Both the position numbers and the translations under genes were made by a program. Shown in pieces: positions 2,444 to 45,097 of a stretch of 64,000 bases of DNA. Source of the stretch: a virus; IMG/VR virus record IMGVR_UViG_3300050034_000081. One strand, given 5' to 3'. The notes beneath the pieces are model-generated. The model was not told the origin of the DNA, searched no databases, and saw only the letters and a program-made list of their open reading frames with translations. Positions within the stretch are counted from its first letter, which is position 1; the number at the start of each line of letters is the position of its first letter.

Positions 2444-2773
2444 CTATTCCTCACCTTTAGGTTTTCTAAATATTCCCCTACCAATAGCAGGTTCTACAGT
2501 CCCCAGAATCGAGCCATAAAGCCCACCCTCCACCAGACCTTTCTTGATGCCGTGACCTAGCTCATTCCTGAGCCCAGGATTACCCTTAATTTGCTTTAAA
2601 CCAGAAATGAGGCTACCACCCGTTCCTTTTAAGGTTTTAAATACATTTAAACCAGCATCAGCAGCAGCAAGTCCACCAGTTAATGCAATTCCTGAAGTCA
2701 AATAAGGATGACGTTGAGTAAAGCCAGCGATACCAGTTTTTTGTTGATCTAATGCTAATTTAATTAAACTCAT
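2444..2773 (-). CDS. MSLIKLA-leader basic Gly-rich protein (putative virion internal protein)
   Basis: Starts MSLIKLAL; Gly/Ala-rich helices (GIALTGGLAAADAG; GLVEGGLYGSILG); basic. Confidence 0.65.
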   Translation of the reverse strand: MSLIKLALDQQKTGIAGFTQRHPYLTSGIALTGGLAAADAGLNVFKTLKGTGGSLISGLKQIKGNPGLRNELGHGIKKGLVEGGLYGSILGTVEPAIGRGIFRKPKGEE

Positions 2774-2919
2774 TTTTTAGCCTTACTATCTTCTTCTTCC
2801 ATTTCTTTTACAGTTTTAAGAATTCCTTTCGAATTCTTTTTCATTTTTTCTAATTCTTCATGATCTTCTTTTAAATGAGAATCAGTAATTATAACTGAAC
2901 ATAATTTAATTAAACTCAT
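2770..2919 (-). CDS. MSLIKL-leader 49-aa protein (not in ORF track)
   Basis: MSLIKLCSVIITDSHLKEDHEELEKMKKNSKGILKTVKEMEEEDSKAKK; start and stop overlap both neighbours (ATGA coupling). Confidence 0.7.
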   Translation of the reverse strand: MSLIKLCSVIITDSHLKEDHEELEKMKKNSKGILKTVKEMEEEDSKAKK

Positions 2920-3635
2920 AATATAGGTTCCTGCGTTTTCTCAATAAGTTTATTATAATTATCTACTAAATATTTCTTATTACCTTTATGTAATTGTTTA
3001 ATAAATTCTTTTAAAAATTTACCATCACGAATAAAAGATAATTTTTCAATACCATCTTTACCATGTGTAAATTTAATTAATTGAGTTCTGTAATTACCTT
3101 TTTCATGAACTTTTGCTTCAATAGGGAATCTATGATAACCTCCAGGTTTAACTGGAATTTTTTCTTGTTTCATTGCTTCTGTAATTTTAGATCTAATCTT
3201 AGAATTAATATCTCTGGGATCTTCTAAATCTTTTTCCATTCTATTTATAATATTTTTTCTCATACCAGAGAGTCTATCTAATCCCCATCCTGAAGCACCG
3301 AAAAGAGCACCTGTTACAATCGCATTTTTAACTCTTTGACCTTTTGTGAATTTTTTATCAGTTATTTGATTTTTACTTTCTAATCCAGCCAGCCCAGCAC
3401 CTAAACCAACAGCACCTAAAGCAAATTTATTAGATTTGACAAAATTTTTGATATTTTCTAAATTAGAGGCTAATTTTATTAACCCTTTACTTCGTTTAAT
3501 TCCAGTTGCAATGGCTGTGCCTTCTGAACCACCATTTTTAAGTATGGCATTTGCAATTGAAATTGCTTTCTTCTGAATAGAAGGTTTAAAATATTTCATT
3601 GAAATTGGTACATTATCGGGATATGACCAGGGCAT
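2916..3635 (-). CDS. YdaT/DUF2188-like N-terminal domain fused to an IKLA-delimited basic domain
   Basis: MPWSYPDNVPISMKYF...KKAISIANAILKNG..EGTAIATGI resembles YdaT-like proteins; followed by GLIKLASN and glycine-zipper segments. Confidence 0.55.
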   Translation of the reverse strand: MPWSYPDNVPISMKYFKPSIQKKAISIANAILKNGGSEGTAIATGIKRSKGLIKLASNLENIKNFVKSNKFALGAVGLGAGLAGLESKNQITDKKFTKGQRVKNAIVTGALFGASGWGLDRLSGMRKNIINRMEKDLEDPRDINSKIRSKITEAMKQEKIPVKPGGYHRFPIEAKVHEKGNYRTQLIKFTHGKDGIEKLSFIRDGKFLKEFIKQLHKGNKKYLVDNYNKLIEKTQEPIL

Positions 3636-3639
3636 ACTA

Positions 3640-4383
3640 TTATCTCTTATGTAGTTTTAAAATATTAGTTCGTAAGAATTTCTCACCTTTAGCACCAACC
3701 ATTCCACCTAATATAGAAGCACCAATTCTCTTTCCTACAGTATTTTGATCATTTTCCCCTTTTATTAAAAATGGAGCAAGTGCCATGCCTGTTACTCTAC
3801 CAATAGCAGATTTTGATTTTGTGTGATATAAAGATTGTTTTAATGATGATTGATGTAATTTATCTATATCAGCAGCAGAAAGTAAATCTTTACCATAAGT
3901 TTTACCAGTTATATTTTTAATAATATCAGATTCACCAGTTAAATATCGCATCTTTTGTATTCTATTAATTGCATTTTTATTTTTTAATTTAGATAAATTA
4001 TTACTTTCTTCACCCAAAACGGCTAAAGTAGTATGTCTACCTCTTGGTACATTAAAAATACCTTGTCTTATATCTGCTTTTACAGGATTAGAAAACATTC
4101 TTTCGAAAGGACCTTTACCTTCATTATATTGATTAAGATATTTTCTTTCAGATAATTCATGCTTAATTCCTATTCTGTGTAAATCTTTTATATTTTGTTT
4201 GCTATCAAAAATTTTATGTAATGGAGAAGTGAATCTAAGCAATGGATTACGCACATCGCTAGCGATTATATTCCCACTATTAGACATAGTGGCATAACCT
4301 CCAACCGGCAATGCTGCAAGGTTATCTTTAAAACTATTAAATTTAGTCTGAGGAACAACTAAAGCTAATTTAATTAGACTCAT
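3640..4383 (-). CDS. MSLIKLA-leader basic protein
   Basis: Starts MSLIKLAL; C-terminal GASILGGMVGAKG glycine zipper. Confidence 0.65.
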   Translation of the reverse strand: MSLIKLALVVPQTKFNSFKDNLAALPVGGYATMSNSGNIIASDVRNPLLRFTSPLHKIFDSKQNIKDLHRIGIKHELSERKYLNQYNEGKGPFERMFSNPVKADIRQGIFNVPRGRHTTLAVLGEESNNLSKLKNKNAINRIQKMRYLTGESDIIKNITGKTYGKDLLSAADIDKLHQSSLKQSLYHTKSKSAIGRVTGMALAPFLIKGENDQNTVGKRIGASILGGMVGAKGEKFLRTNILKLHKR

Positions 4384-4384
4384 A

Positions 4385-4702
4385 TTAACTCACAATCTTA
4401 CTAATGGAAAATAAAACAATATCAGGTTCTTCAGTAGGAGAAATGACAACTTTAAATCCTTGATTTTTATAATACTTTGAAATACTTATTACCAACTTAA
4501 TAAAATTAGGAGAAAATCCATTATCAAAATTTGTATCTTGCATTGCAACTACAGCTTGATTATTTTTAATATGAGAATTAATAAAATCGATTAAAGATTG
4601 AATATCATTAAAATTTTCAACAATAATTTGCTGATCATTATTTATTGGAGATATGAAAGAAAAAGTTAATAATGAAAGAGTTAAAAACACAGGAATAAAC
4701 AT
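4385..4702 (-). CDS. Hypothetical protein with N-terminal hydrophobic or signal segment
   Basis: MFIPVFLTLSLLTFSFISP; GGAGA RBS; no lipobox Cys. Confidence 0.6.
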   Translation of the reverse strand: MFIPVFLTLSLLTFSFISPINNDQQIIVENFNDIQSLIDFINSHIKNNQAVVAMQDTNFDNGFSPNFIKLVISISKYYKNQGFKVVISPTEEPDIVLFSISKIVS

Positions 4703-4729
4703 CCTTATCTCCAGTGAAATTAATATTAG

Positions 4730-4888
4730 TTAAGTGATGGTCTCATTTTTCATACCCCAGTTCATAATAGCTTTATTCGGTTTTATTCTTAATTGAGGTT
4801 TTTGTCTTACCGTATCAGGAAGTAGACGAAGATCTTTATCACTCTCTACTAGTGGAGATGTTTCTAATGCTAGTTTAATTAGACCCAT
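4730..4888 (-). CDS. MGLIKLA-leader 52-aa protein (not in ORF track)
   Basis: MGLIKLALETSPLVESDKDLRLLPDTVRQKPQLRIKPNKAIMNWGMKNETIT. Confidence 0.7.
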   Translation of the reverse strand: MGLIKLALETSPLVESDKDLRLLPDTVRQKPQLRIKPNKAIMNWGMKNETIT

Positions 4889-5024
4889 TATAGTTCTCAA
4901 TAAATTTCTTCATTAACTTATTCATTTTGTCTTGCTCATGTTTTGGCATATTCTTAATTAAATCATTCATAGTTTCACAATATTCAAAGAAATCTTGTTT
5001 CTTTATAATATTTATGAGATTCAT
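4875..5024 (-). CDS. Hypothetical 49-aa protein (not in ORF track)
   Basis: MNLINIIKKQDFFEYCETMNDLIKNMPKHEQDKMNKLMKKFIENYNGSN; fills the gap with ATGA overlap to the upstream gene. Confidence 0.5.
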   Translation of the reverse strand: MNLINIIKKQDFFEYCETMNDLIKNMPKHEQDKMNKLMKKFIENYNGSN

Positions 5025-5710
5025 TTTCCATACCTATTATAAGTAATACCTTTATAAGTAAGTTTACTTAACTCACCATTAAAGTCTAAAAGAACTTTAC
5101 GAATACCTAAAATAGTAAAATTATTAATATGATTCATAAAATCAAATATTACTTTAGTTTTTATATTGTTATTATTATAAATATCTGTATCTTCACATAC
5201 ACTAATTATAAATGCATAAATAGCCTGAACTTTATCATCATACCATTCATTAAATCTATTTATTGCAATATCAGGTATATTATTTTCTTTAGCTCTAATC
5301 TCATACATTCTTACTATATTAGCTATACATTCCTGCATTCTTTTAGAATAGACCTCATTTGACATTAACTCAAGATTGTTATCTTCTATAATCTTTTTAA
5401 ATTCATCTTCTACTATCGTAAATTTAATAAGGAGAAAATCACGAAAAATAGCTTCTCGTAACCTTTCTCCTAATGTAAAATGTTTAATGTCGTAGTTTAT
5501 ATATTTTCTTAAATTAACAAACATTACGTGATTAGATAGATTATATTTTGTTTTAGTTTTATTAAATAATTTATTCCAAAGAGTTTTACCATTAATGGTC
5601 TTATGAATTAATATATATATAATTGTACTAAATAACAAAAAATGAAATCCAGCTACAAGTCCCCATTTTTTTATTATTTCACCTAATATTTGTATAAAAT
5701 CCATCATCAT
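5021..5710 (-). CDS. Membrane-anchored protein, possible lysis-module component
   Basis: N-terminal TM (WGLVAGFHFLLFSTIIYILIH) then a soluble helical domain. Confidence 0.55.
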   Translation of the reverse strand: MMMDFIQILGEIIKKWGLVAGFHFLLFSTIIYILIHKTINGKTLWNKLFNKTKTKYNLSNHVMFVNLRKYINYDIKHFTLGERLREAIFRDFLLIKFTIVEDEFKKIIEDNNLELMSNEVYSKRMQECIANIVRMYEIRAKENNIPDIAINRFNEWYDDKVQAIYAFIISVCEDTDIYNNNNIKTKVIFDFMNHINNFTILGIRKVLLDFNGELSKLTYKGITYNRYGK

Positions 5711-5725
5711 CTCTTTAAAATAACA

Positions 5726-6463
5726 TTATTTTTTAATGTAACGGTCATATAGCCAATACCCGCCACCACCAATACCTACACCAATAACAAATTTTATCTT
5801 ACCATTCATAGACTCAACTTTCAAGTCTTTCTCATATAAATTAATTTGTTTATCTTTATCTTTACCACTTTCTGTAAGTAAATTGTTTGAATTAGTAAGA
5901 CCATTATTTAAATCTTTTTCTGTAGCAACCAAATTCTGGTTAGCAGCATTTTCATTTTGAGTAGCCTTAAGATCTTCTTCGGTAGCGGCTAATTTATTTA
6001 TTAAAATTGGACCATTTACTTTCCACTGAATAGCGTCATTGGTTAAATTAATAGTAGTAGGTTGAATAATATTAAATCTAGTTCCATCAAATCCTACAGT
6101 ATTATCATTATAATTTTTAGCTATTGCATCTTTTACATCTTGAACTTCTTTAACTGGAGTAATTACTACAACTGATTGTGTATTATGAAGATGATTATCT
6201 GCAATAATAGTAACTTGATGAGCATTAGTTACACTAGTAGTTGCTTGATCAACTTTAGCCTGTAGAATCCGGTTCTTAGCAGTTTGATCTTTAATAGAAT
6301 TATTAAGTTCTGTTATTTTAGAATTTAATACTGCAATTTTAGTAGCATCTTTATTGGTAGATTTATTTAATATATAAGTATAAATACCGCTAGTAACTAA
6401 TGCAGTAATTAGAATTGTATATAAATAAGATTTAATGCTAGTTATTTTACTGAGGTCCATCAT
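5726..6463 (-). CDS. Coiled-coil protein with N- and C-terminal hydrophobic anchors (spanin-like candidate)
   Basis: YLYTILITALVTSGIYTYIL, long coiled coil, C-terminal FVIGVGIGGGGYWLY. Confidence 0.5.
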   Translation of the reverse strand: MMDLSKITSIKSYLYTILITALVTSGIYTYILNKSTNKDATKIAVLNSKITELNNSIKDQTAKNRILQAKVDQATTSVTNAHQVTIIADNHLHNTQSVVVITPVKEVQDVKDAIAKNYNDNTVGFDGTRFNIIQPTTINLTNDAIQWKVNGPILINKLAATEEDLKATQNENAANQNLVATEKDLNNGLTNSNNLLTESGKDKDKQINLYEKDLKVESMNGKIKFVIGVGIGGGGYWLYDRYIKK

Positions 6464-6830
6464 TATCTCCCTTTACTTGACTGGCAACAGCTTTAATTTC
6501 TTGCACCTTATTAAACACACCCTTTGCAGCACCAACGCCGATTGCCGTTCCAATTAAATAGAAAACTCCATCAGGTATTTTAAGATTTTTAACAACCGCA
6601 ACGCACACTAAACAAAAACCACCAATACCCCAAAGATAATCTAATAATCTTGTACTAGAATAAAATCCATCATTTCCTATAACAGAGCGATCAAATCTAT
6701 TAACTACACCCTGGAATAAAGAAATCACACAATCTCGTAATTGAGTAAGTGTAACTACTTTACGAATTAACATTTCAATAAATAAACTAGTAGATAAAAC
6801 AATAGTAATATATCCGACCAACTTCCACAT
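6447..6830 (-). CDS. Holin-like small multi-pass membrane protein
   Basis: 127 aa, 2-3 hydrophobic segments, charged C-terminal tail; AAGGAGA RBS. Confidence 0.5.
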   Translation of the reverse strand: MWKLVGYITIVLSTSLFIEMLIRKVVTLTQLRDCVISLFQGVVNRFDRSVIGNDGFYSSTRLLDYLWGIGGFCLVCVAVVKNLKIPDGVFYLIGTAIGVGAAKGVFNKVQEIKAVASQVKGDNDGPQ

Positions 6831-6863
6831 AAGAATCTCCTTCAGTTAATGATAACACAGAAA

Positions 6864-22236: not shown

Positions 22237-23652
22237 ATGCCTGATTATAAATTACAAGAGCATCAAAATGATGCTGTAAAGCAATTTAATAAAACTAAGT
22301 CACAGATTTTATTCCATGGTTTAGGAAGTGGAAAAAGTTTATCATCAATTGCTATTGGAGAGCAAGATCCTTCTGAATCTAAATTAGTTTTAACTCCAGC
22401 ATCTCTTAGTCATAATTATATTAAAGAATTAAAAAAGTTTAACGTACCTTTAGATAACTACCATTTAGTATCTTACGAAAAATATCGTCTTAATCCAGAT
22501 TTTTATTTAAGCAAATATAAGCCAAAGATGATTATTGCCGATGAATTACATCGTGCTCAAAATGAAAGTTCTCTTACTGGAGATACACTTAGATATTCTA
22601 GATCTAAAGTTAATAAAATGTTGGGTTTAAGTGGTTCGATTGCCCAAAATAGTCCAACTGAAATAGCTTCATTACTACATACAGTAGCGGGTAAACCAGT
22701 TCTTGGTACAGAGAAAGAATTTAGAGCTAACTTTATTAAAGAACATAAAATTGGACCAGGACTTATTGGAAGATTAATGGGGCGAAAAGGCGGCACGATT
22801 CAGGAGGCTAAAAACTTAGATAAGTTTAAAGAATTAGCCTCTCCTTATATTAATACTTTTTCTGGTAATGAAGATTATAATAAGCATTTACCAAAAGTAG
22901 AAGAAGAAATTAAAAGAATTGGAATGAGCAAAGAACAGCAAGGATATTATGACTACGCATTTAAACAAGCCCCTGGCTGGGTTAAATACAAGATTAATCA
23001 CAATTTGCCTTTAAATAAACGCGAATCAGTTAATTTAAATGCTTTCTCTATTGCAGGTAGACAAATTTCAAATAGTGTTGAGGGTTATGGTGGTTCTACA
23101 CATACACCTAAAATAGATGCTATAATGAGCGATATTCAACAAGGAATGAAAAAGGATAAGAATTTCAAGGCTGCTATTTATTCTGGCTTTTTGGAATCAG
23201 GATTAGATCCGATAGCTCGAAAATTAAAAAAAAGAAATATACCATATGGTATGTTTACAGGAGAACAGAGTAAAGAAGAAAGAAATCAAATGGTAACTGA
23301 TTATAATAAAGGAAAATTAAAAACTTTATTAATTTCACCGGCAGGTGGTGAAGGTTTAGATCTTCATAATACAAAGATGATGGGAATTGTTGACCAAAGC
23401 TGGAATCCTCAAAAAACTTTACAGGCCATTGGAAGAGCGGCTAGATACGATTCTCATAAATCATTACCCGAAGAAGAAAGAAAATTAAAAGTTATACAAT
23501 ATCTTTCAGAACCTAGACTTGGGATGTTCGGAAAAATTAAGAGATACTTTAATCCAAATATACATAAAATTGGAATTGATGAATATATGCGCAATAGAAG
23601 CATGGAAAAACAGCAATTAAATGACCAATTTACAAATGTTTTAAAAGGTTAA
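22237..23652 (+). CDS. SF2/SNF2-type helicase within the tail module
   Basis: HGLGSGKS, IIADELH, LSGS, AGGEGLDL, QAIGRAARYDSH; start ATG 22237. Confidence 0.88.
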   Translation: MPDYKLQEHQNDAVKQFNKTKSQILFHGLGSGKSLSSIAIGEQDPSESKLVLTPASLSHNYIKELKKFNVPLDNYHLVSYEKYRLNPDFYLSKYKPKMIIADELHRAQNESSLTGDTLRYSRSKVNKMLGLSGSIAQNSPTEIASLLHTVAGKPVLGTEKEFRANFIKEHKIGPGLIGRLMGRKGGTIQEAKNLDKFKELASPYINTFSGNEDYNKHLPKVEEEIKRIGMSKEQQGYYDYAFKQAPGWVKYKINHNLPLNKRESVNLNAFSIAGRQISNSVEGYGGSTHTPKIDAIMSDIQQGMKKDKNFKAAIYSGFLESGLDPIARKLKKRNIPYGMFTGEQSKEERNQMVTDYNKGKLKTLLISPAGGEGLDLHNTKMMGIVDQSWNPQKTLQAIGRAARYDSHKSLPEEERKLKVIQYLSEPRLGMFGKIKRYFNPNIHKIGIDEYMRNRSMEKQQLNDQFTNVLKG

Positions 23653-28711: not shown

Positions 28712-29638
28712 ATGTTTACTGACCATATTCATGATCAATTAGGTAGATATAGAATTGGTGCTATTAATGAAGCAATGCCAGAGTTTATTAAGGTAGCAGA
28801 AGATAATATTGTATCTGAAAATTTAGAAAAATTAGCAGATGGTTATTTTGCTTACTCTGATGGTATTAATAGATATTTTCCAATTCATACTCCTGAACAT
28901 ACATGGTTTAGTAATGCTTATTTTGAAAAATTTGCACATGAGTTTAATGAACAAGAAATATCTCAAATTAGAGAACGAATTACTGATGCTTATAAAACAT
29001 TCGAATTACCAGAAGTAGAATTTTCAAAAACTGCTTCCGAAGAAGATGATTTAGATGCTTTACATTCTTTATCTATTGAATTAAATAAATTTATTGAAAA
29101 TCACAAACGTTATCCTATTGAGGAACGTAGAGAAAAAGCTAAGGAAATCTTACATCATGCTCATGCTTTAGGAAAACAATCTTCTTTGCATGATTCAGTA
29201 TATAGATATGCTGGCGATCACTTTAAGAAAAATTATGGACATGCATTTGCCGATCGTATGAAATATTTTAAAAGCGATGCTCCAGAACGGACTCACTTAC
29301 TTAAAATGCAGGAAGAATCAGAATCACATATTCCAGAATTAGTAGCTAAAGCTTTAGGTATATTCGATCATAGAACTGGTTTACATAAATTTTATGATAA
29401 CGAATTGGAAGATCCTTACGCTGGTTTATTGACTCCATTTGAAACTAACGCTAATGAAAATGTTAATATTGGAGAAGAATCACTTCCTTTACATAAAATA
29501 AATAAATTTGACTTTAATTCTTTAAAAGATATTCTTGAAGATAAAGTCTTGGACAAATTAAAGAGTAATCCAGTGGATGCTTTACGTGAAATTAATCCTA
29601 ACATTCGTGTAATTGTGATTCGTAAGATAAATGAATAA
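28712..29638 (+). CDS. Head-associated protein with K-x-A motifs
   Basis: IKVAE, EKLAD, EKFAH, SKTAS; directly upstream of the portal candidate. Confidence 0.5.
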   Translation: MFTDHIHDQLGRYRIGAINEAMPEFIKVAEDNIVSENLEKLADGYFAYSDGINRYFPIHTPEHTWFSNAYFEKFAHEFNEQEISQIRERITDAYKTFELPEVEFSKTASEEDDLDALHSLSIELNKFIENHKRYPIEERREKAKEILHHAHALGKQSSLHDSVYRYAGDHFKKNYGHAFADRMKYFKSDAPERTHLLKMQEESESHIPELVAKALGIFDHRTGLHKFYDNELEDPYAGLLTPFETNANENVNIGEESLPLHKINKFDFNSLKDILEDKVLDKLKSNPVDALREINPNIRVIVIRKINE

Positions 29639-30059: not shown

Positions 30060-31875
30060 TGTATCTACAACATCAGTAGTAGCACCGGAGACTGGTCGTC
30101 GTTATCCAATGAACGGCTTGCAGTATCCTCAAAGATTTTATAATTTATTACATCTTCAAAGACCAAAGACTTTAAATGAAATTTTTAAATGGGCTATTGT
30201 TTTAAACGAATCTTCTGGTCTTTTAGATCGTATTACCGATACTATGTCACGATATCCTATTACTCCCGTGGTAGTAGATAATGATATTGGAGAAGATAAA
30301 AATTATTGGTCTAAATTACTTAATGATGAATTATGTATTCAAGATGAATTAGTTAAAAATGGAAAAGATTATTATACTTTTGGAAATGCTATAGTATCTA
30401 TAGTTCCTCCATTTAAACGTTATTTAGCTTGTCCTGATTGTAATACTTATAAAGCACATTGTATTACTGATGAAGATCGTAAATTTGAATGGCAATTTAG
30501 GGATTATAAATTTCTAGCTAAATGTTCTAATAAAAATTGTAAATTTCAAGGTGTAATGAAGGTTAAAGATGAATTGTTAGAAGGCGATGAATTCATTAAA
30601 AATATTAGAATTCAGAGATGGCCTGTTCAGTTTATTAAAGTAAGAGATTTAGGTATTGCTGGTAAAAAGAAAATTTATTATCGTATCGAAGATAAATATT
30701 CTAAACCAATTATGAAGGGTGATAAATTTGTAGTAGCTAATGTTCCAGAAACTTTCATATTAGCTTGCAAACAAAATCCAATTAATCCAGTAATAGAATT
30801 ACCTGCTGAATTAACTTTTCATTATCAGCATGAAGGCATTACAGAACCAGAATGGGAAGGATTATCAAAACCATTTTTCTTCTCAGCATGGAACGATTTA
30901 TTTATGAGTTTTATTTTACGTAAGGCTCAGGAATGTATTGCTTCAGATCATTTTCTTCCTAATAGATTTATATTTCCAACGTCGTCTAGTGGCACTGATC
31001 CGTTAAGTAAAATTGATGGTGCTGCATGGATGGGTATTGTAGCTACTCAATTAAAGAGACAGCAAAATGATCCCAATGAAATTGGAGTTGTTCCTTTTCC
31101 TGTTGGCTATCAGGCTTTGGGTGGCCAAGGAAAAGCTATGTCTTTACGGGAAGAAATTGAATTACAAGATCGTAGAATTCTTACTCAATTAGGAATTCCA
31201 CCAGAATTAATTTATGGTGGTATGACTTGGAGCGGATCTAATATTTCTTTACGTATGTTAGAGAATTTATTTTTATATTATATTAATAAACAAAATACAT
31301 TTATTAGATTTTTAGTACGTTATTTAGCACGTATGACCAATAAGCAAGCTCCAAGTAGTGTTAAACTTAAACCATTTAAAATGGCTGATGATATTCAGCA
31401 AATTCAAATGCTTTCAAATCTTGGTGCGCAGGGTCGTATTAGTGAAAGTACAGCTTTGGCTCAAGTTGGTATTAATATTGCCGATGAAGCTAAGCAAATG
31501 GAAGATGATAAACCCTTCCTTGAGAGAATTCAAGCAGCTAGACAATTGGCTGCTGCTGAAGTTAATAAAGAAGTTTCTCAAGTTACTAATGAAGGTCAAG
31601 TTGATGTTAATTTAAGAACACAATTATTACAAGGTCAAGAAACTCAATCTGCTCAATCTAATATAGGTGATGGATTTATAGCTACAACTACTCGTGGATT
31701 TGTGAATAAATTTAAAGATTTATCTTATGCTGATAGACAAAAAGAATTAAGAAATTTACAAGCTAAAGATCCTGAAGTTTATATGAAAGTTATGGCAGAA
31801 TTAAATGGAGTTTCGGCAGATCCATTACCAGAAGTAAAAGGACCAAGATCTACTCCTGATAAGGCAAAAGTATGA
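30052..31875 (+). CDS. Portal protein
   Basis: 607 aa; helical core with YQALGGQGK, ILTQLGIPPELIYGG, ISESTAL motifs; followed by neck, sheath and tube genes (inference). Confidence 0.7.
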   Translation: MTNVSTTSVVAPETGRRYPMNGLQYPQRFYNLLHLQRPKTLNEIFKWAIVLNESSGLLDRITDTMSRYPITPVVVDNDIGEDKNYWSKLLNDELCIQDELVKNGKDYYTFGNAIVSIVPPFKRYLACPDCNTYKAHCITDEDRKFEWQFRDYKFLAKCSNKNCKFQGVMKVKDELLEGDEFIKNIRIQRWPVQFIKVRDLGIAGKKKIYYRIEDKYSKPIMKGDKFVVANVPETFILACKQNPINPVIELPAELTFHYQHEGITEPEWEGLSKPFFFSAWNDLFMSFILRKAQECIASDHFLPNRFIFPTSSSGTDPLSKIDGAAWMGIVATQLKRQQNDPNEIGVVPFPVGYQALGGQGKAMSLREEIELQDRRILTQLGIPPELIYGGMTWSGSNISLRMLENLFLYYINKQNTFIRFLVRYLARMTNKQAPSSVKLKPFKMADDIQQIQMLSNLGAQGRISESTALAQVGINIADEAKQMEDDKPFLERIQAARQLAAAEVNKEVSQVTNEGQVDVNLRTQLLQGQETQSAQSNIGDGFIATTTRGFVNKFKDLSYADRQKELRNLQAKDPEVYMKVMAELNGVSADPLPEVKGPRSTPDKAKV

Positions 31876-38133: not shown

Positions 38134-38970
38134 CTATAACTTAAATGCAATCATCTGGCCTTCCATTCGAGTATCAGGTACTATTGGAATCCAAATAAAT
38201 AAAACATTTTTATTTTGAAAAACAATATTAACTTTATTTCGTAAATCAGTTCCAGTAATTGGATCCATAATTCTTACATCGACATCTGAATTTAAATTGT
38301 GATAGAAATTTATTACGTAACGATTATTTATCGGATCGAGGGTCCAATTGCTCATTACAAATACAAATGGGTCGGTTTTCTGGGGTGTCTGGGGTCTACC
38401 GCTGGGACCATTCGGGCCTAGAATACCACCAGGAACGGCAGACATAGAGGAAGTTCCCGTAGCAGTTAAATAGTCTGGACCAGTATAAAGTCCTGAGTAA
38501 TCCCAAAGCATATATTCAGCACTTTTAACAATACCAAATGTACGTCCATAATTAATTGCAAGTTTAAATTCATATTTTTTCTTTTCTACTAATTGAGCCC
38601 ACATACCAGCTACACCCATATAAGCTGGACCCTTCGTCCATGGACTAGTAGTAATACCACTATCATTAAATTGCAATTCATTTCTATATTGTAATACACC
38701 AGCAGACTGCAAAATAAACATAGCACTTGCCACAATTAACCAATCCATAACTGGAAAATTAGTTAATCCAACGTGAGTTAAAAGTGGTGGAGTGCTATTC
38801 CAATCACTAATAGCCATATTAATAGCTAATTTAATTTCATCATCATCTGTTTCTTCTTTTTTAATTAAAGCATTTAATTTAGGTTTATCTCGAAGAAACA
38901 TGCGAATAAGATTAATTAAAATTTGTGGAGTCATTTGACCATTTGGAAAGGTCTGGGGTGGATTAATCAT
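38134..38970 (-). CDS. Head-tail adaptor / head completion protein
   Basis: IRMFLRDKPKLNALI...DDEIKLAINMAISDWNSTPP helical adaptor-like motif; downstream of the capsid gene. Confidence 0.55.
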   Translation of the reverse strand: MINPPQTFPNGQMTPQILINLIRMFLRDKPKLNALIKKEETDDDEIKLAINMAISDWNSTPPLLTHVGLTNFPVMDWLIVASAMFILQSAGVLQYRNELQFNDSGITTSPWTKGPAYMGVAGMWAQLVEKKKYEFKLAINYGRTFGIVKSAEYMLWDYSGLYTGPDYLTATGTSSMSAVPGGILGPNGPSGRPQTPQKTDPFVFVMSNWTLDPINNRYVINFYHNLNSDVDVRIMDPITGTDLRNKVNIVFQNKNVLFIWIPIVPDTRMEGQMIAFKL

Positions 38971-39006
38971 GTGAGTTACCTCTATCTGATTATATCATAA
39001 AACAAC

Positions 39007-39029
39007 AAAAACCGCTAGAAGCGGTTTTT
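39007..39029. terminator. Rho-independent terminator
   Basis: AAAAACCGC-TAGAA-GCGGTTTTT. Confidence 0.8.
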
Positions 39030-39051
39030 AGTTGTTTCATATTATAACAAT

Positions 39052-39423
39052 TTACTTTTTATCATCTGAAGAAGGAGGAGTTACTACTTTTTTAACTTCT
39101 TTCTTAGGCTCTTCAACAATATAATTAGATGGGATTCCATTAATAATAGTAGGTTGAGTATTTTCCCAATCAATTAAACTAACAGGAGCATTTTCGCCTT
39201 CAGGAGGATTTAAAGATTTGTAACTTTTATTAAATAATTCCTGACGAGAAATAAACTTAAAAGCTTCAGCCTCTTCATGAGAATCTTTAACAATAACGAG
39301 ACCGCGTTTAACTAGATCATTTAAGATATGCTTTTTACTATCTTCAATAAATCCAATCTGCCCCTCTTTTAACGAAAGACCTTCTCCAGTAATATGACCA
39401 AACAAAGCTTTGACATACGACAT
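39052..39423 (-). CDS. Hypothetical head-module protein
   Basis: AGGAG RBS; follows the capsid gene. Confidence 0.55.
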   Translation of the reverse strand: MSYVKALFGHITGEGLSLKEGQIGFIEDSKKHILNDLVKRGLVIVKDSHEEAEAFKFISRQELFNKSYKSLNPPEGENAPVSLIDWENTQPTIINGIPSNYIVEEPKKEVKKVVTPPSSDDKK

Positions 39424-39436
39424 ATGTAACTCCTAT

Positions 39437-40357
39437 TTAAGTGAGAGAGGCAATACCAGTAACCTTAGCAACTGAGGCAACGTTACCAATTTCAGCACCC
39501 TGATCAGCCCATGAATACCATTCGAGAATATTAGCTTCACGCTTCATTTCCTGTTGAACATCACCCAGGATAAAGTTAGAACCTAAAAATTCAGGCATTG
39601 CAATGGCATAGATACTATCATCAGGCCATACGCTATTAGCGGTAGTGGAGTTAATCGAAGTGATAACTTCATAACCTAAGAATGTCTTTTCCGCAGCAAC
39701 GCCATTCAGCGCAATACGTCCAACATTCTCATAACCAATCTTATCAGGTTCGAGCTTAGCCAGGTCCAGCCAAGTTGATTCTGTCATAATAAGGCGAGCA
39801 ACTCTACGCCGTTTACCAAGCACCTGACGAACCGCTGTAATAACTGCATTCTTAAAGTTATCTTTTACGGCACCAGCAGTAGCAGCAGAGGTATTACCGG
39901 AAGCGGCTACGGAAGCATCAAGTCTAATCTTAAAGAGAGCATCAAGCTGTTCCTGCATATCCAGTACGAAGTTGTTATTCACAACATCCATAAGAGGATA
40001 ACGCATTGTCATTAATTCTTCACGGGTCTTCTTAAAGTGCTGAGTTTCAATCTTGGTAAAGTAAACTTCATACTTTCTGCCTTCCATAAAGTTAGCAGAA
40101 CCCTTACCACGGAAGCCAAGAGTGAAAGCTTTAGAATCGGGCTCAATCTCAACGCGCTTCAGAGGCCAGTCATTAGTAGTATTACGTTCAATCTGCGCTT
40201 CGGTAAGTACTACAGGAGGAATAGCGCGATTTAATACGCTAGTCTCACGAAGGCGATCACGAATAAAATCCTCAGTAAGAGCGGCTACCTTCTCCATACC
40301 GGAAGCTGATTTTCCGGTAAATACATCCCAAAGCTGGGAAGCCATCATATTACTCAT
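39437..40357 (-). CDS. Major capsid protein (HK97-fold)
   Basis: 306 aa, higher-GC optimised codons, FIRDRLRETSVLNRAIPP start and GAEIGNVASVAKV end; lies after protease, scaffold and decoration genes. Confidence 0.8.
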   Translation of the reverse strand: MSNMMASQLWDVFTGKSASGMEKVAALTEDFIRDRLRETSVLNRAIPPVVLTEAQIERNTTNDWPLKRVEIEPDSKAFTLGFRGKGSANFMEGRKYEVYFTKIETQHFKKTREELMTMRYPLMDVVNNNFVLDMQEQLDALFKIRLDASVAASGNTSAATAGAVKDNFKNAVITAVRQVLGKRRRVARLIMTESTWLDLAKLEPDKIGYENVGRIALNGVAAEKTFLGYEVITSINSTTANSVWPDDSIYAIAMPEFLGSNFILGDVQQEMKREANILEWYSWADQGAEIGNVASVAKVTGIASLT

Positions 40358-40390
40358 AATTAAAATCTCCTATTTAATTTTTAATTTATC

Positions 40391-40825
40391 TTAAAAGGTT
40401 ACGATACGATAAACCGAAGTGCTAATACCCTGAGCATCATTAGCAATGCTGTAACTATCAGCTACCTGACCTTTAACTAAATTAGCATCGCCAGGAAGAC
40501 TAGCTGCAATAAGTAAACCGGCAGTAGCACCAGTGCCAGGCTTAAGATAAGAACCAATGGCAGGTGATCCAGAAACCTGATCAGTTTCAGCTTCCATGAC
40601 ACCATAAACTACGGTATAAGAACCGGAAGTCTGACTTAACAGATCTTCAAAGATGAAACCAATTGAAGATCCAAGACCTACGGTGCTATTATCAGATTTA
40701 GCAATAGTATTAGAAGTACCAGTTAACTGAACAACCGTACCTTTAACCAGTCCGGCGGGGCCAGAACGGCTAGTGATCATTACTGAGTGAGAACCTTCCT
40801 GAAGGCCACTGAGAATGTTAAACAT
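40391..40825 (-). CDS. Capsid decoration / cement protein
   Basis: 144 aa Gly-rich beta protein directly upstream of the MCP, AGGAG RBS. Confidence 0.65.
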   Translation of the reverse strand: MFNILSGLQEGSHSVMITSRSGPAGLVKGTVVQLTGTSNTIAKSDNSTVGLGSSIGFIFEDLLSQTSGSYTVVYGVMEAETDQVSGSPAIGSYLKPGTGATAGLLIAASLPGDANLVKGQVADSYSIANDAQGISTSVYRIVTF

Positions 40826-40850
40826 ATTTTATATCTCCTTGATATAATGG

Positions 40851-41234
40851 TTAATTTTCGTCAAGTCCTAATTCACCCATTAACGCAGCTTGCTTTTCCA
40901 TGAATGAATCAATTGCTTTAGAGCCTGAAATTGGAATTACTTTTTCTTCTGTATATACGGAACCAAAAGATCTATTCTGTCTCATAATAGAGGCCATTTT
41001 TACCATGGCATCGATACTTTCACCTGATTCGCTCGCAGTCTTAATCATATCAGAAGCCTGATTAAAAGACACGCCTAATTTAACGGCCACTTCCTCCGCT
41101 TTCTTGGACATATCTTCGTCTTTTCCCTTAGACTGAATCTGAGCAGTTAATTCTTGAATAATAGCAGCAGATTCATCTAAAAGCTGTAAAGCATCCTGAA
41201 GCGGATCTGATTGACCTTGCTGAACTGGGTCCAT
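40851..41234 (-). CDS. Scaffold-like acidic protein with K-x-A motifs
   Basis: SKKAE, IKTAS, VKMAS; coiled-coil. Confidence 0.55.
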   Translation of the reverse strand: MDPVQQGQSDPLQDALQLLDESAAIIQELTAQIQSKGKDEDMSKKAEEVAVKLGVSFNQASDMIKTASESGESIDAMVKMASIMRQNRSFGSVYTEEKVIPISGSKAIDSFMEKQAALMGELGLDEN

Positions 41235-41235
41235 T

Positions 41236-41640
41236 TTAATTTACCTCTTTAAAAAGTTTAGATCCTCTAGCCGAAACTAACGAAGCTAAAGAGGCTAATT
41301 TAATTTGCGTTCCATCAGGTCTTTGAATCATTACTGTGCTATTACCAGATGTAGTAGCTCCTACAGCTTGAGCAGCGGCAGCTTCGGCAGGTTGATCTTC
41401 CTGATTAGGCTGCGCATTAGGATCACCTTCTGCTGGAGTCCCACCCTGAGATAAAGCAGCTTTAAACTGTTCTACTTTCTGTAAAAAGGCTTGAGCGGTA
41501 GTTAAAATATCACCACCACCCTGTTCCTGATTAGATGGAGCATCGGGCGCACCATTTTCATCATTAGCTGACTTTTCTAAATCCGAACCAATCTCAGATT
41601 CGGCTTCTGCTAAAAGTTTATCAATAAAACTATCACTCAT
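41236..41640 (-). CDS. Acidic head protein with K-x-A motifs
   Basis: Start ATG 41640 after GGAG; LEKSAN, IKLAS. Confidence 0.55.
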   Translation of the reverse strand: MSDSFIDKLLAEAESEIGSDLEKSANDENGAPDAPSNQEQGGGDILTTAQAFLQKVEQFKAALSQGGTPAEGDPNAQPNQEDQPAEAAAAQAVGATTSGNSTVMIQRPDGTQIKLASLASLVSARGSKLFKEVN

Positions 41641-41641
41641 A

Positions 41642-42205
41642 TTAAGCTCCCACCATGGCATTTAATTCATCGGAAAGAGCAGTAGCAGTTTCCTCATCAA
41701 TAAGTTTTTTCATAAAACCATCTTGTAATCCTACTTTAACCATTTTTATTAATTCCTGAATAGCATCAGGATATTGCTCACCAACGGCTTTTACAAATGG
41801 CATAATCTTATTAGATTGCCCTTCTTCTAAAGCTTCATCAATTGCATTTTTAATATCCTGAGCCCTCATACCGCCTGGAGTAGTAGTTGGGTCCATTGTT
41901 TCATTAGTTTTATTACCAGTAGCAGGAGTACTATCTATTTTAACATTTTCATCTTCTACAGCAGCTTGTTCTGCACTTTCCTCATTAGGATTATCGGTAT
42001 TTTCAACCTCTTCCTTTGGTTCTTTCTTTTCAGATAATTCTTCGGCAATCTTTTCTAAGACAAGCTGTGCTGTATAATTTGCGGTCTTTTCTAACAAAGG
42101 AAAGATAGCATCTATTACTTTATTAACCATTTCATCTTGAGCTTCGGACGCGAGTTTTTGCAAGACCTCTGGCTCTGTTTTTTCTATAAATTCTTTGAGA
42201 TCCAT
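41642..42205 (-). CDS. Acidic head protein with K-x-A motifs
   Basis: QKLAS, EKTAN, EKIAE. Confidence 0.55.
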   Translation of the reverse strand: MDLKEFIEKTEPEVLQKLASEAQDEMVNKVIDAIFPLLEKTANYTAQLVLEKIAEELSEKKEPKEEVENTDNPNEESAEQAAVEDENVKIDSTPATGNKTNETMDPTTTPGGMRAQDIKNAIDEALEEGQSNKIMPFVKAVGEQYPDAIQELIKMVKVGLQDGFMKKLIDEETATALSDELNAMVGA

Positions 42206-43929
42206 TATTTTTTATCCTTAAAAATTTTGCTTACGCCAGTTGTTAAATCATTAGATACATTCTTAATAGCTTTATAACTATTCTTTGCACCAGCCATTCC
42301 CATTGCGGCACCAACAATTCCCATTTTACCAGGGTTGTTAGCAATAGTTCTACCTAAAACTCCAACAGGATATCCTTGTTGCATTTTATTTTGGTAGTGG
42401 GCACTAGCAATATATGGAGCTGCAAAACCAATAGCTCCTTTAGTTAATAATCCTTTGCCTGAATTCCAGAAACCAGGAACTGCGGCAGCTTGTTTATTTA
42501 ACTCTTCATTAGTAAATGGATTATTACTAATATATTTATCAGACTCTTTATTGTCTCTAATCATTTGAGAAATACCAGAACCTAATAAACCATAAGCGCT
42601 AAATTTACTTTCAGCGTTATTACGATATAATAAATATAATGCAGAAAGAATAGATCCAAGACCTATAGTTCTAGTCATTTCAGCTTCTTTGCGTAAACCC
42701 TTTTCAGTATTATAAATTCTATCTCCAACACATCCAATAGATCTTTCATCTAATATATGAGTAGGAATTTCATTAGATAATTTAACGGCTTTATGTGTAA
42801 TATCAATATCAGCTAAAGAATGCAATTCTTCATCTAATCCTTTTACATCAGGATTTTTAATAACTGCTTTAGTATGATAAAACTCTTGAGCTAAATCATC
42901 TCGCTTAGAATTTTTTAATAAAATATAAGCAAACTCATTTGGCTTAGCAATAATGCCAGCATGAGTTAAAGCGCCCCAAGCTTCAGAAGGTTTAAGTTTA
43001 GCTAATTCTTCCATTAATTTATGAGGTAAATCTCTTTCAGTATTACATACTTTAGCTATTGCACCTTCAATATGAGTTGGCATTTCTTTGTAAAGAGTAG
43101 AATGTTTTTCTATCTCTTCTGCTTCTTTATCAAATTGTCCAATATCATAATAATCAGCAAGATCTAAACTAAATTCAAAATCTGTACTAGCTACCTTTTC
43201 TAATTGCATACCAGCCAGAAATGCTGGTCTATTTACTTTACTAATATCAAAAAATCTAGGAAATAAATTTTCAGCATAGACTTTACGACCATCTTCCAAT
43301 ATTTTACCCATCTGAAATTTAAGATGAGGACAGTATTTCATAATAGAAGTATTATGTTGATGACAAATGGAGCAACGATCCCAAGGAAGTTTGGCTCCCA
43401 TGGAAACTGCTACTAATTGATTAGCGTCAATCATTCCTGCGGTTTCAGGATCTTTTTTTCTATCTACTCCAATGATAAGTAAAACTGTATGCATTTTGGG
43501 ATTCCAAATTGCATTTGGTACATATCCATATACCTGATCACCATTTTCGGGTTTGTTATGGTGATGTTTATAAAATCCGGCATCTTCAAATGACTTATAA
43601 CGTAACTTAGCTTTTATTCTATCGTTTAATCTTTCATCTTTAGGTGAAACTTCATCCCAAACAGGAGTATTCTGTAATCCTAATAATGAATCATAAGGAA
43701 AATAGTCATGATTTTTATTATCGCCAAAAGTTTCACCATCACTCATGGCGGTAACTAATATATAACTATGATCTTTCTTACGTTTTAAATTTTTAATAGC
43801 CTCATCAACTTCTTTAGGAAGATCGCGTTTTGTCGCAGTCTTAATAAAATCGTTCTCATATCTATCTTCTAATGAGATAGATAATTGAAGATCTTCTGGT
43901 ATGTTAGTTGATGAGAGTAATTTGTACAT
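42205..43929 (-). CDS. Prohead maturation protease with C-terminal extensions
   Basis: DNKNHDYF...HHHNK...VAVSMGAK...CSICH...CPHL...FFDISKVNRPA resembles herpes/HK97-type phage prohead proteases; the domain ends at LEKVAS. Confidence 0.7.
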   Translation of the reverse strand: MYKLLSSTNIPEDLQLSISLEDRYENDFIKTATKRDLPKEVDEAIKNLKRKKDHSYILVTAMSDGETFGDNKNHDYFPYDSLLGLQNTPVWDEVSPKDERLNDRIKAKLRYKSFEDAGFYKHHHNKPENGDQVYGYVPNAIWNPKMHTVLLIIGVDRKKDPETAGMIDANQLVAVSMGAKLPWDRCSICHQHNTSIMKYCPHLKFQMGKILEDGRKVYAENLFPRFFDISKVNRPAFLAGMQLEKVASTDFEFSLDLADYYDIGQFDKEAEEIEKHSTLYKEMPTHIEGAIAKVCNTERDLPHKLMEELAKLKPSEAWGALTHAGIIAKPNEFAYILLKNSKRDDLAQEFYHTKAVIKNPDVKGLDEELHSLADIDITHKAVKLSNEIPTHILDERSIGCVGDRIYNTEKGLRKEAEMTRTIGLGSILSALYLLYRNNAESKFSAYGLLGSGISQMIRDNKESDKYISNNPFTNEELNKQAAAVPGFWNSGKGLLTKGAIGFAAPYIASAHYQNKMQQGYPVGVLGRTIANNPGKMGIVGAAMGMAGAKNSYKAIKNVSNDLTTGVSKIFKDKK

Positions 43930-43935
43930 TTTTAA

Positions 43936-44133
43936 TTATTTATCTTTCTTCTTTTTATTATGTAAATAATTACTTAATCCCATTCCAGCAGCACCACCTG
44001 CGCCGCCAGCCATCAATCCTCTTTTAAGACCTTTTTTAAGACCTTTTTTAAGACCTTCTTCAAGACCCTGTTTTATACCATCATTTTTAGCAGCTTGATA
44101 ATACCAATCATAAGAAAGTTTAATAAGACTCAT
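43936..44133 (-). CDS. MSLIKLS-leader small basic protein
   Basis: GLEEGLKKGLKKGLKRG repeat, MAGGAGGAAGMG, ends KKKDK. Confidence 0.65.
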   Translation of the reverse strand: MSLIKLSYDWYYQAAKNDGIKQGLEEGLKKGLKKGLKRGLMAGGAGGAAGMGLSNYLHNKKKKDK

Positions 44134-44134
44134 A

Positions 44135-44488
44135 TTATTTCGCCTTTAAAGCAAGAGATTTAAGTTTGCCGACAAAAGGAAGAATTTCGGCTTTAGGTAA
44201 TGGTTTTTTAAGCGCACTAGAAATACCAGCTTTTACAGCATCATCTAATCTTAACGGTCCAGTCTTTTTTAATCCCTGTAAACGCTGTCTCATTACACCT
44301 AATTTAGAAGGATCTTTTTTAGCAGCAGCAACAGCATCTGTAGCAAGATTATAATGAAGTCCCTGTTCAGGATTCATAGTCTTACCAATAGCCATTTGCA
44401 TAGGATTAACTGCACCATCTTTTTCAAGAATAGATGCGAGTTTATATAATTCTAAATCATCATATTTTAATGCAATTTCTTTAATCAT
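44135..44488 (-). CDS. Small basic protein with K-x-A motif
   Basis: Start ATG 44488 overlapping the upstream gene; LYKLAS. Confidence 0.55.
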   Translation of the reverse strand: MIKEIALKYDDLELYKLASILEKDGAVNPMQMAIGKTMNPEQGLHYNLATDAVAAAKKDPSKLGVMRQRLQGLKKTGPLRLDDAVKAGISSALKKPLPKAEILPFVGKLKSLALKAK

Positions 44489-44750
44489 GCTTTTTTCCAG
44501 CCTTAAGGGCAGCTCCAACACCCAAAGCAGCACTTCCGTAAAGAGCAGCGCTAGGAGCTAAAGATTTTAAGCCAGATTTAGTAGTAGCAAAATGTTTAAG
44601 TTTATCAGCGGCAGTAGGAAGTCTACGTAACGAAGTTAAAGTACTATTCTCAAGACGATGAGCCTCAGATTTAATGGCCGTACCTTTAGCCGCATTTACA
44701 ACAGCATCTTTAATCCCAGAAAGATTAAAAGCAAGTTTTACGATAGACAT
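44481..44750 (-). CDS. MSIVKLA-leader small basic protein
   Basis: C-terminal AALYGSAALGVGAALKAGKK. Confidence 0.65.
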   Translation of the reverse strand: MSIVKLAFNLSGIKDAVVNAAKGTAIKSEAHRLENSTLTSLRRLPTAADKLKHFATTKSGLKSLAPSAALYGSAALGVGAALKAGKKHD

Positions 44751-45097
44751 TATGATTTCTCCACATTCTTTTTATGTTTAAATGCTAAACTTCCAGCACC
44801 AATAGTAGTTCCCAATCCAATACCGCCAATAATCTTTTCTTTTAATTTATGAGAATTAATTTCAGATTCATGACCTTTAATTTGGTCTCTTAATTTATGA
44901 ATCTTCTTTCCTAAATCACCATTCATTTTGCGTTGTTTTAAATAAGCTTCACCTAAATCACCATTCTTAGCACCTTCGTAAGCACCACGAATAGCTTTCT
45001 TGGTTGCATTTCTAGAATTTTTAATATCAGCTTCTACGGCACCAAATAAACCTCGAATAGCTTTACCGGTTCGCATAGCCAATTTAATTAAACTCAT
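44750..45097 (-). CDS. MSLIKLA-leader small basic protein
   Basis: C-terminal IIGGIGLGTTIGAGSLAFKHKK; GAGGA RBS. Confidence 0.65.
   Translation of the reverse strand: MSLIKLAMRTGKAIRGLFGAVEADIKNSRNATKKAIRGAYEGAKNGDLGEAYLKQRKMNGDLGKKIHKLRDQIKGHESEINSHKLKEKIIGGIGLGTTIGAGSLAFKHKKNVEKS

Follow-up and report, generated by a model that had tools for sequence, protein, structure and literature searches.

A shared N-terminal heptapeptide and the genes that carry it

The 64-kb stretch of viral DNA analyzed here in full (IMG/VR record IMGVR_UViG_3300050034_000081; hereafter the window) is a piece of a probably larger genome of an uncultured large phage, and the subject of this report is a heptapeptide leader, MSLIKLA, that opens a set of proteins encoded in it. 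The window has a G+C content of ~30%, and no cultured phage shows DNA-level similarity to it. Its nearest cultured relatives are remote (Salmonella phage Arash; Vibrio phages D69, D181, and D148; Bacillus phage G), their protease and capsid protein being 25 to 32% identical to those of the window. A head module comprises, besides the large terminase gene, genes for scaffold-like proteins of 403 and 213 amino acids (aa), four small open reading frames (ORFs), a 574-aa protease, three acidic proteins, and the capsid protein (Table 1). Outside this module, the window encodes a DnaE-type polymerase, several helicases and nucleases, an HNH endonuclease, and a probable tail operon.

An earlier note on this DNA had reported a common N-terminus on eight ORFs and one internal copy, and all of these were found, the internal copy being GLIKLAS. 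The eight ORFs lie in three loci and have the consensus M-[S/G]-[L/I]-[I/V]-K-L-[A/C/S]. A degenerate DNA pattern for this leader had 8 matches in the window, exactly the eight leader ORFs, whereas 100 dinucleotide-preserving shuffles had 0.11 on average and at most 1. Codons vary synonymously at Leu3 (TTA, CTA, or CTT), Ile4 (ATT or ATA), Leu6 (TTA, CTA, CTT, or TTG), and Ala7 (GCA or GCT), and the DNA upstream of each leader is the end of the preceding gene, unrelated and unconserved; therefore, as had been argued in the earlier note, selection acts on the leader peptide rather than on the DNA. Codons 2 to 6 are AT-rich in all window variants. An exact SLIKLAL also occurs in antisense orientation within a helicase gene (22722-22742, minus strand), where it has no start codon. 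We rejected this copy, read from position 22742, as a real leader; it is probably a chance occurrence in AT-rich DNA, since the SLIKL pentamer occurs four further times in non-coding frames.

TABLE 1 Positions of the leader genes, head genes, and other features of the window
Feature	Coordinates	Strand	Remarks
Leader protein, 109 aa	2444-2773	-	MSLIKLAL; isoelectric point (pI) 10.0; two Gly-rich segments; 113-aa orthologue in contig G002
Leader peptide, 49 aa	2770-2919	-	MSLIKLCS, with Cys at the Ala position; window only
Protein, 239 aa	2916-3635	-	Internal leader-like site, GLIKLA/S at residues 51-57
Leader protein, 247 aa	3640-4383	-	MSLIKLAL; pI 10.2
Leader peptide, 52 aa	4730-4888	-	MGLIKLAL; orthologues in contigs G002 and G005
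Protein, 308 aa	28712-29638	+	4 motif sites in first 110 residues; G002 orthologue keeps FEKFAS and LVKFAS
Probable portal, 607 aa	30052-31875	+	Lead from language-model feature search only
Leader protein, 275 aa	31872-32699	+	MSLIKLAF; glycine zipper at residues 147-191
Head module	38134-48657	-	Minus-strand block
Major capsid protein	39437-40357	-	MEKVA/A at residues 21-26; weak HK97-type matches
Three acidic scaffold-like proteins (127, 141, and 187 aa)	40851-42205	-	
Prohead protease, 574 aa	42205-43929	-	Catalytic domain ~40-240; C-terminal part Gly-rich
Leader protein, 65 aa	43936-44133	-	MSLIKLSY; immediately upstream of protease gene
Protein without leader, 117 aa	44135-44488	-	LYKLA/S at residues 14-19
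Leader protein, 89 aa	44481-44750	-	MSIVKLAF; Gly/Ala-rich segment; basic tail
Leader protein, 115 aa	44750-45097	-	MSLIKLAM; Gly-rich segment; basic tail
Acidic scaffold-like protein, 213 aa	45157-45798	-	8 motif sites versus 1.1 expected
Head protein, 403 aa, scaffold-like	45829-47040	-	7 motif sites in first 165 residues
Large terminase	47080-48657	-	PHROG 675, E = 4e-55

With the leader removed, the bodies are unrelated in sequence (all BLASTP pairs, E > 0.1), which is what the earlier note had said of them, but they are not fully independent, because most have a common architecture. Seven of the nine bodies are basic (pI ~10), the 49-aa peptide being the sole acidic or neutral leader member (pI 6.7). 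Most contain a Gly/Ala-rich, moderately hydrophobic "glycine-zipper" segment, with a 19-residue Kyte-Doolittle maximum of 0.7 to 1.4, and several end in a Lys-rich tail. The tag also occurs without a Gly-rich segment, namely, on the 49- and 52-aa peptides, on the 247-aa protein, and on a helicase of the related 112-kb contig G002. PHROGs gave no match for any leader protein, and Pfam gave only glycine-zipper matches and one match below the cutoff. Within the window, the leader is not on any recognizable replication or nucleotide-metabolism gene, which bears on the concern raised in the earlier note that it might be equally common on non-virion genes.

The first locus (2444-4888) is a separate array whose size differs among relatives, and it adjoins three genes with hydrophobic N-termini (5021-6830). 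Its 52-aa peptide has orthologues of 47 to 48 aa in two contigs, in which a C-terminal RLLPxTxRQKPQxRxKPNK..NWGMK is conserved, and conservation indicates that the short leader members (49, 52, and 65 aa) are real genes. The G002 orthologue of the 239-aa protein has 286 aa and carries IVKLAA at the position of the internal leader-like site; a ChaB-like domain that had been considered for the first 50 residues of the 239-aa protein was dropped when Pfam gave no support. For the 247-aa protein, no family, fold, or phage homologue was found, and an Atlas feature search was uninformative.

At the second locus, the start of the 275-aa leader gene and the stop codon of the probable portal gene overlap. 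The gene that follows the portal gene encodes a head-internal minor protein in, for example, SPP1 and Mu. The best language-model neighbors of the 607-aa product are all portal families (score, 0.93); it has no sequence match in Pfam, PHROG, or the PDB and no BLASTP similarity to gp218, the Arash protein at the portal position. If this protein is the portal, its gene lies in a tail/neck operon, 13 kb from the remaining head module and on the opposite strand. Among 14 orthologues of the 275-aa leader protein, M1, L3, K5, and A7 are invariant down to 32% identity, and the ~10 residues that follow the leader are hypervariable, with insertions and deletions, and form the most variable part of the protein. 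The predicted structure is all-alpha, and its N-terminal residues 1 to 25 have predicted local distance difference test (pLDDT) values below 50, suggesting that the tag sits on a flexible extension. A Foldseek search of this model against BFVD gave no significant match, and tblastn with the 275- and 247-aa leader proteins against 50,697 phage records gave none. The third locus (43936-45097) places three leader genes between the scaffold-like genes and the protease gene, inside the head module.

Leader and bodies in related contigs

A search for the leader in the window and its relatives, proposed in the earlier note and carried out by DNA pattern, found that the leader is kept while the bodies are swapped. 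The collection-wide pattern fixed Ser as AGT and Lys as AAA before six-frame extraction and therefore undercounts leaders in relatives; it nevertheless recovered 43 body clusters behind the leader, of which at least 35 remained after removal of chance matches in unrelated GC-rich phages (L021/L043, L041/L049, and L039). One 6.4-kb contig carries five tandem leader ORFs. Where the protease of a contig is 95% identical to that of the window, the gene just upstream of the protease gene keeps the leader but continues into a different body, of 71 aa; where the protease is 70% identical, the leader is followed by yet other bodies (147 and 169 aa). G002 has 8 to 9 leader-pattern matches versus 0 to 2 for a reversed control pattern, and its counterpart of the first locus contains ~10 leader ORFs, compared with 4 in the window, with variants that include MGLIKIA, MNLIKLA, MSIIKIA, and MSLFKLA. 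The same peptide is encoded in G002 by GC-richer synonymous codons (AGC, ATC, AAG, and CTT).

In more distant clades, recognized by their proteases, several small proteins per genome again have a common N-terminus that is specific to the clade and ends in K-x-A, and the K-x-A motif again fills the head-module proteins. The leader is M[LI]VK[IL]A in L069 (46% identical protease; e.g., MLVKIAA and MIVKLAG), MxFxxGFxKxA on five proteins of L070 (26% identical protease), MNNxLxGFAxELTKVA on two proteins of L071 (31% identical protease), and MFKSA/S in D69, where it opens a 103-aa protein. Because the L070 and L071 leaders hold a conserved G-F that has no counterpart in internal sites, the leader carries more than cut-site information, which would be expected of a targeting sequence.

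The tag also occurs on an enzyme. The window encodes an SNF2/D6-D11-like helicase (22237-23652, plus strand) that begins MPDYKLQEHQ, without the tag, whereas its G002 orthologue (95246-96730; L074:2247-3731) begins MSLIKLAKKEKEKEKEK; that is, the G002 protein, but not that of the window, has gained MSLIKLA and a (KE)n linker. Arash gp217 shares 35% identity (E = 2e-88) with the window helicase and is represented in the Arash virion proteome by 38 unique peptides and 1148 spectra, compared with 1333 spectra for the capsid protein (PMC10585845). We regard the virion abundance of gp217 as supportive rather than decisive.

These comparisons bear on the idea that the tagged proteins are relics of paralogy, with one ancestor of which only the first seven codons were retained. 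Tandem arrays and a common compositional architecture would fit such a history, but the bodies have no detectable similarity to one another, and the tag occurs on proteins that range from 47 to 494 aa, among them an SNF2 helicase with untagged orthologues. Moreover, the heptapeptide is kept exactly at 32% overall identity, and each clade has a common leader of its own. We consider descent from one ancestor highly improbable.

A wider motif in the head proteins and their protease

The leader is one instance, at the N-terminus, of a more general motif, hydrophobic-x-K-hydrophobic/T-A, with Ser often the next residue. Counted as [LMFVI]-x-K-[LVIFMT]-A, with the expectation taken from 500 shuffles, this motif occurs at 25 sites in 12 head-module proteins versus 2.2 expected (standard deviation, 1.4; shuffle maximum, 8). 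The 64 remaining ORFs hold 12 sites versus 6.4 expected, and a third of these 12 lie near the N-terminus of the 308-aa protein encoded at 28712-29638, which on account of these four sites probably carries a long propeptide. Examples from the head module are LQKLAS, LEKVAS, VEKTAS, MNKIAS, LTKVAS, QIKLAS, and MIKTAS. In the consensus of 34 sites, written in protease subsite notation, P5 is Leu, Met, Phe, or Val; P4 is Glu internally and Ile in leaders; P3 is Lys, invariant by construction; P2 is Leu, Thr, Val, or Ile; and P1 is Ala, followed by Ser in 12 of the 34 sites, with Glu the next commonest residue. MSLIKLA matches this consensus and can therefore be read as Met-Ser plus a canonical site. 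The earlier note had described a leader ending in K-x-A; the motif does end so, but it is better written as hydrophobic-x-K-hydrophobic-A than as K-x-A after a free leader. Among the papers found, none reports a K-x-A motif.

Nearly every head-module protein has its first site within the first 33 residues: at 21-26 in the capsid protein, 28-33 in the protease, 15-20 in the 187-aa protein, 13-18 in the 213-aa protein, 11-16 in the 403-aa protein, and 14-19 in the 117-aa protein. The capsid site lies 6 to 8 residues before a conserved F/V-R-x-x-L-R-E/Q block, and its position is kept in six lineages (the window, Arash, D69, L069, L070, and L071). The capsid protein of Arash, gp226, carries GLVKEA, and the Arash protease, gp222, carries LEKVA and LTKQA. 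The three acidic proteins of 40851-42205 carry MIKTAS, MVKMAS, QIKLAS, LQKLAS, LEKTAN, and LEKIAE, and the 403-aa protein is homologous to Arash gp220, which was detected in virions. The C-terminal part of the protease (~415-574) and the 213- and 403-aa scaffold-like proteins end as the leader proteins do, in a Gly/Ala-rich segment and a Lys-rich tail, and further K-x-A sites (RKEAE and NKQAA) precede the Gly/Ala-rich ends of the protease and the scaffold-like precursors. Each of these precursors may release a cargo-like peptide.

The distribution of the motif is the context in which to consider an explanation that has nothing to do with capsids, namely, that the leader is a membrane-targeting or translation-initiation feature of small membrane proteins with roles in lysis, exclusion, or host takeover. 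Many bodies do have glycine-zipper segments typical of membrane-active peptides, the first locus does adjoin genes whose products have hydrophobic N-termini, and codons 2 to 6 are AT-rich throughout the window. Against this, the motif is spread across capsid protein, protease, and scaffold-like proteins; the head module itself includes three leader members; a soluble helicase also has the tag; the Gly-rich segments are just moderately hydrophobic; and G002 spells the same peptide with GC-richer codons. Such a role, unconnected with the head, is very unlikely.

The sole family match of the protease is that of residues 107 to 241 to PHROG 18299, "head maturation protease" (E = 9.5e-11). Neither the protease nor any of 51 homologues matched a Pfam family at E ≤ 0.1, and a sequence search against PDB chains found nothing. 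An AlphaFold (AF2) model of residues 1 to 252, built from 51 sequences, had a mean pLDDT of 83. Exhaustive structural alignment placed T4 gp21 first (5jbl_A; Z = 8.9; root mean square deviation, 2.9 Å; 127 of 165 residues) and the varicella-zoster virus protease second (1vzv_A; Z = 7.9), followed by the proteases of human cytomegalovirus (Z = 5.8) and Kaposi's sarcoma-associated herpesvirus (Z = 5.5). MCE-domain beta-barrels also scored Z values of 5 to 6, which we regard as generic resemblance, and Foldseek against the PDB returned nothing significant, with T4 gp21 and the Epstein-Barr virus protease only at ranks 46 to 49. According to the model, the protease has the T4 gp21/herpesvirus assemblin fold; gp21-type prohead proteases form MEROPS family S77 of clan SH. 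H123 and S176 are invariant in the 51 homologues and are the putative catalytic pair; their equivalence to gp21 residues comes from a reading of local motifs, not from residue-level superposition.

Two motif sites bracket the protease domain, FIKTA/T at residues 28-33 and LEKVA/S at 243-248. Across an alignment of the 51 homologues (23 to 95% identity to the query), conservation of K245 and A247 is at least 90%, and most of the homologues have hydrophobic-x-K-x-A as their site before the domain. Phage G gp19, which a recent paper on that phage lists simply as maturation protease, has LVKTAA before the domain and LEKVAS after it. The modeled pLDDT falls below 50 at residues 15 to 33 and 248 to 252, suggesting that both sites lie in or beside flexible segments. 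Homologues of this protease form at least 88 clusters in metagenomes, many of them on contigs of ~110 to 180 kb, up to 182 kb; those of homologues P0002 and P0003 include contigs of 159 to 173 kb.

Two side observations concern the protease gene itself. A near-invariant cluster of D184, C186, C189, and C200 (DRCSIC...YCPH) is inserted in the protease domain (residues 184 to 200), and a few homologues gave weak zinc-ribbon matches; the cluster may be a structural zinc site, which T4 gp21 is not known to have. Three homologues (P0056, P0076, and P0085) are enlarged to 684 to 968 aa and contain LAGLIDADG or intein-type Pfam domains, and their insertions are inteins or homing endonucleases in a head-protease gene.

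If the motif is a site of this protease, the leader could be a minimal propeptide and nothing else, with entry into the head left to the glycine-zipper segments and basic tails, which would bind scaffold, portal, or DNA. The leader does fit the general consensus of internal sites, most of the cargo has a Gly-rich segment and a basic tail able to mediate incorporation, and the window helicase and Arash gp217 have no tag, yet gp217 is abundant in virion preparations. On the other hand, removal of seven residues has no obvious purpose in itself; the leader is far stricter (S2, I4, and L6) than internal sites; the L070 and L071 leaders have conserved residues beyond those of internal sites; and the tag is also found on bodies that have no Gly-rich segment. 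We judge this explanation unlikely, if worth keeping in mind. A second explanation dispenses with cleavage and makes the leader an uncleaved docking peptide for a pocket in the inner capsid or the scaffold, as in encapsulins, with repeats that give avidity. A short linear motif repeated 7 to 8 times in acidic scaffold-like proteins suits this idea, as does an HK97-like capsid protein, and the variable residue after the Ala of the leader would be irrelevant to docking. The motif is, however, also at the capsid N-terminus and on both flanks of the protease, conserved over 23 to 95% identity, which fits autoprocessing and propeptide removal and does not fit cargo docking, and P1 Ala with a preference for Ser matches the Ala/Ser rule established for assemblin. 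We therefore give docking without cleavage a small probability, lower than that of a bare protease site.

Two further features stand apart from the leader and the head proteins. An HNH endonuclease gene (48699-49634, plus strand) and the large terminase gene stand side by side and are divergently transcribed; a place beside a terminase gene is common for HNH genes. Near the start of the window, a tandem repeat (1949-2182) is open on both strands, its plus strand reading (G-Y/G-D)n over 70 aa and its minus strand (R-I/R-L)n over 77 aa.

A proposed address-and-cleavage tag and its relation to known systems

The reading that we favor, and hold to be fairly probable, is that MSLIKLA is an address-and-cleavage tag like the capsid-targeting sequence (CTS) of phage T4: it would mark proteins for the interior of the prohead and be removed there by the phage's own prohead protease. 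The tag ends in what appears to be the cutting site of that protease and, therefore, probably loads proteins into the capsid. The earlier note had likewise proposed a targeting and cleavage leader analogous to that of T4 and distinct from it in sequence. Motif enrichment, the protease flanks, genomic context, and the portability of the tag agree with this idea, although targeting and injection stay matters of inference. More generally, there is partial support for a capsid address-and-cleavage system of the T4 kind, one that has its own code and a protease of a new lineage. The motif sites lie as expected for a short capsid propeptide, many cuts in acidic scaffold-like proteins, and self-release of the catalytic domain, which together are the hallmark of prohead-protease processing in T4 and phiKZ-like phages (PMC5694885).

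The proposed recognition motif is hydrophobic (P5)-x-Lys (P3)-hydrophobic or Thr (P2)-Ala (P1), with the cut most likely after Ala and with Ser the commonest next residue. Late in infection, the tagged proteins would assemble, by way of the tag, together with the capsid protein, the protease precursor, and the acidic scaffold-like proteins, by analogy with T4, whose internal proteins reach the scaffolding core by means of the CTS (PMC3012670). To judge from the positions and conservation of the two flanking sites, the protease would then free itself there, fragment the acidic scaffold-like proteins at many sites, and shorten the major capsid protein by ~26 residues and the cargo by the heptapeptide. 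The basic glycine-zipper cargo would stay in the head with the DNA and, we speculate, would probably be ejected into the host; its Gly-rich segments suggest, equally speculatively, oligomerization or membrane insertion.

Several points weigh against this reading. Cleavage, the scissile bond, the addressing role of the tag, virion residence, and ejection are all inferred. After its Ala, the leader has any of a wide range of residues (L, F, M, W, G, K, and others), in contrast to the preference for Ser at internal sites. Since the window helicase and gp217 lack the tag, it is not needed for the helicase to be in virions, and detection in Arash is itself weak proof of virion residence, because the proteome is a permissive one, with 116 of 272 proteins in it, ribonucleotide reductases among them (PMC10585845). 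The Arash paper makes no mention of a protease, processing, or cleavage (PMC10585845). The portal identity of the gene upstream of position 31872 is a lead from the feature search. A complex prediction for protease residues 1 to 252 with the first 40 residues of the 109-aa leader protein gave a score of 0.00, which counts neither way. Finally, all characterized gp21-type proteases cut after Glu (T4, L/I-x-E; phiKZ, S/A/G-x-E; SPN3US, A-x-E) (PMC5694885), and the proposed Ala-ending specificity is therefore without characterized precedent in that family. The recurrent motif in the window ends in Ala, with Lys two residues before it, and not in Glu; no search for a Glu-ending motif was made.

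The closest functional parallel is the CTS of the T4 internal proteins IPI to IPIII and Alt, which gp21 removes. In both systems a short N-terminal peptide (7 to 16 residues here, 10 to 20 in T4) is found on unrelated, mostly basic proteins and ends in the motif of the phage's own head protease, as we propose for the window, whose protease is of the gp21 fold. The cargo is hypervariable in both: T4-type cargo genes are hypervariable among relatives, with the tag alone conserved (PMC3012670, PMC5694885), and the cargo-gene arrays found here would be the counterpart of the T-even internal-protein genes. The two differ in that MSLIKLA has no sequence similarity to MKTYQEFIAE and no L/I-x-E site; the cut would fall after Ala, with Lys at P3, rather than after Glu; and there are more cargo genes here (8, and ~14 in G002), which encode mostly glycine-zipper peptides. 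In phiKZ-like phages (phiKZ gp175 and SPN3US gp245), a single short motif serves for the processing of many head and ejection proteins, the protease cuts its own chain C-terminal to the catalytic domain, and arrayed or paralogous head proteins have identical N-termini (PMC5694885). Their propeptides differ from the leader in being mostly >100 residues long and their motif in ending in Glu, and beyond the fold class we detected no sequence relation to the window protease.

Encapsulin cargo-loading peptides resemble the tag as short portable peptides that bring unrelated cargo into an HK97-fold shell. They differ in being usually C-terminal and uncleaved, in binding the shell directly, and in being absent from the shell protein, whereas the tag is N-terminal and its motif is also on the capsid protein and the protease. 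Herpesvirus assemblin cuts at (V/L/I)-x-Ala/Ser. It resembles the window protease in fold, in Ala at P1 with Ser favored at P1', and in a site that directly follows the protease domain like the release site, and the Ala-ending motif is closer to its rule than to the specificity of Glu-cutting phage proteases; it differs in that, in the motif found here, Lys is invariant at P3 and P5 is hydrophobic and in that the window has separate scaffold-like proteins and N-terminal cargo tags. In Staphylococcus phage 80alpha, N-terminal extensions of the capsid and scaffold proteins are cut by the host cysteine protease Prp at a motif (LNLQFF-A/S) that mimics the host ribosomal protein L27. That system too removes a short common N-terminal peptide from head proteins; in contrast, the phage studied here encodes its own motif-flanked, serine-type protease, and its leader bears no resemblance to the L27 extension.

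Taken together, and more tentatively, we envisage a widespread uncultured clade with genomes of ~110 to 180 kb, distantly related to Salmonella phage Arash, Vibrio phage D69, and Bacillus phage G. Its head protease would have a new specificity, hydrophobic-x-Lys-hydrophobic-Ala, cutting before Ser or another small residue; in the subclade of the window, a freely portable 7-residue tag (MSLIKLA) would suffice to load any protein into the head; hypervariable membrane-active peptides would be injected along with enzymes, including an SNF2 helicase; and leader and protease would codiversify. This combined reading is quite possible, although we hold it with some doubt.

If true, these data would provide a cleavage code for a large, unstudied family of phage head proteases, with at least 88 clusters, that is unlike the cut-after-Glu rule. 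They would also provide an annotation rule, whereby an ORF with the leader of its clade encodes a head-internal and probably injected protein, and dozens of orphan ORFs would thus become candidate anti-defence or host-takeover factors. At 7 residues, the tag would be shorter than any known phage encapsidation signal and attractive for packaging foreign proteins. Arrays that differ among near-identical phages would then resemble arms-race loci, comparable to the T-even internal-protein loci.

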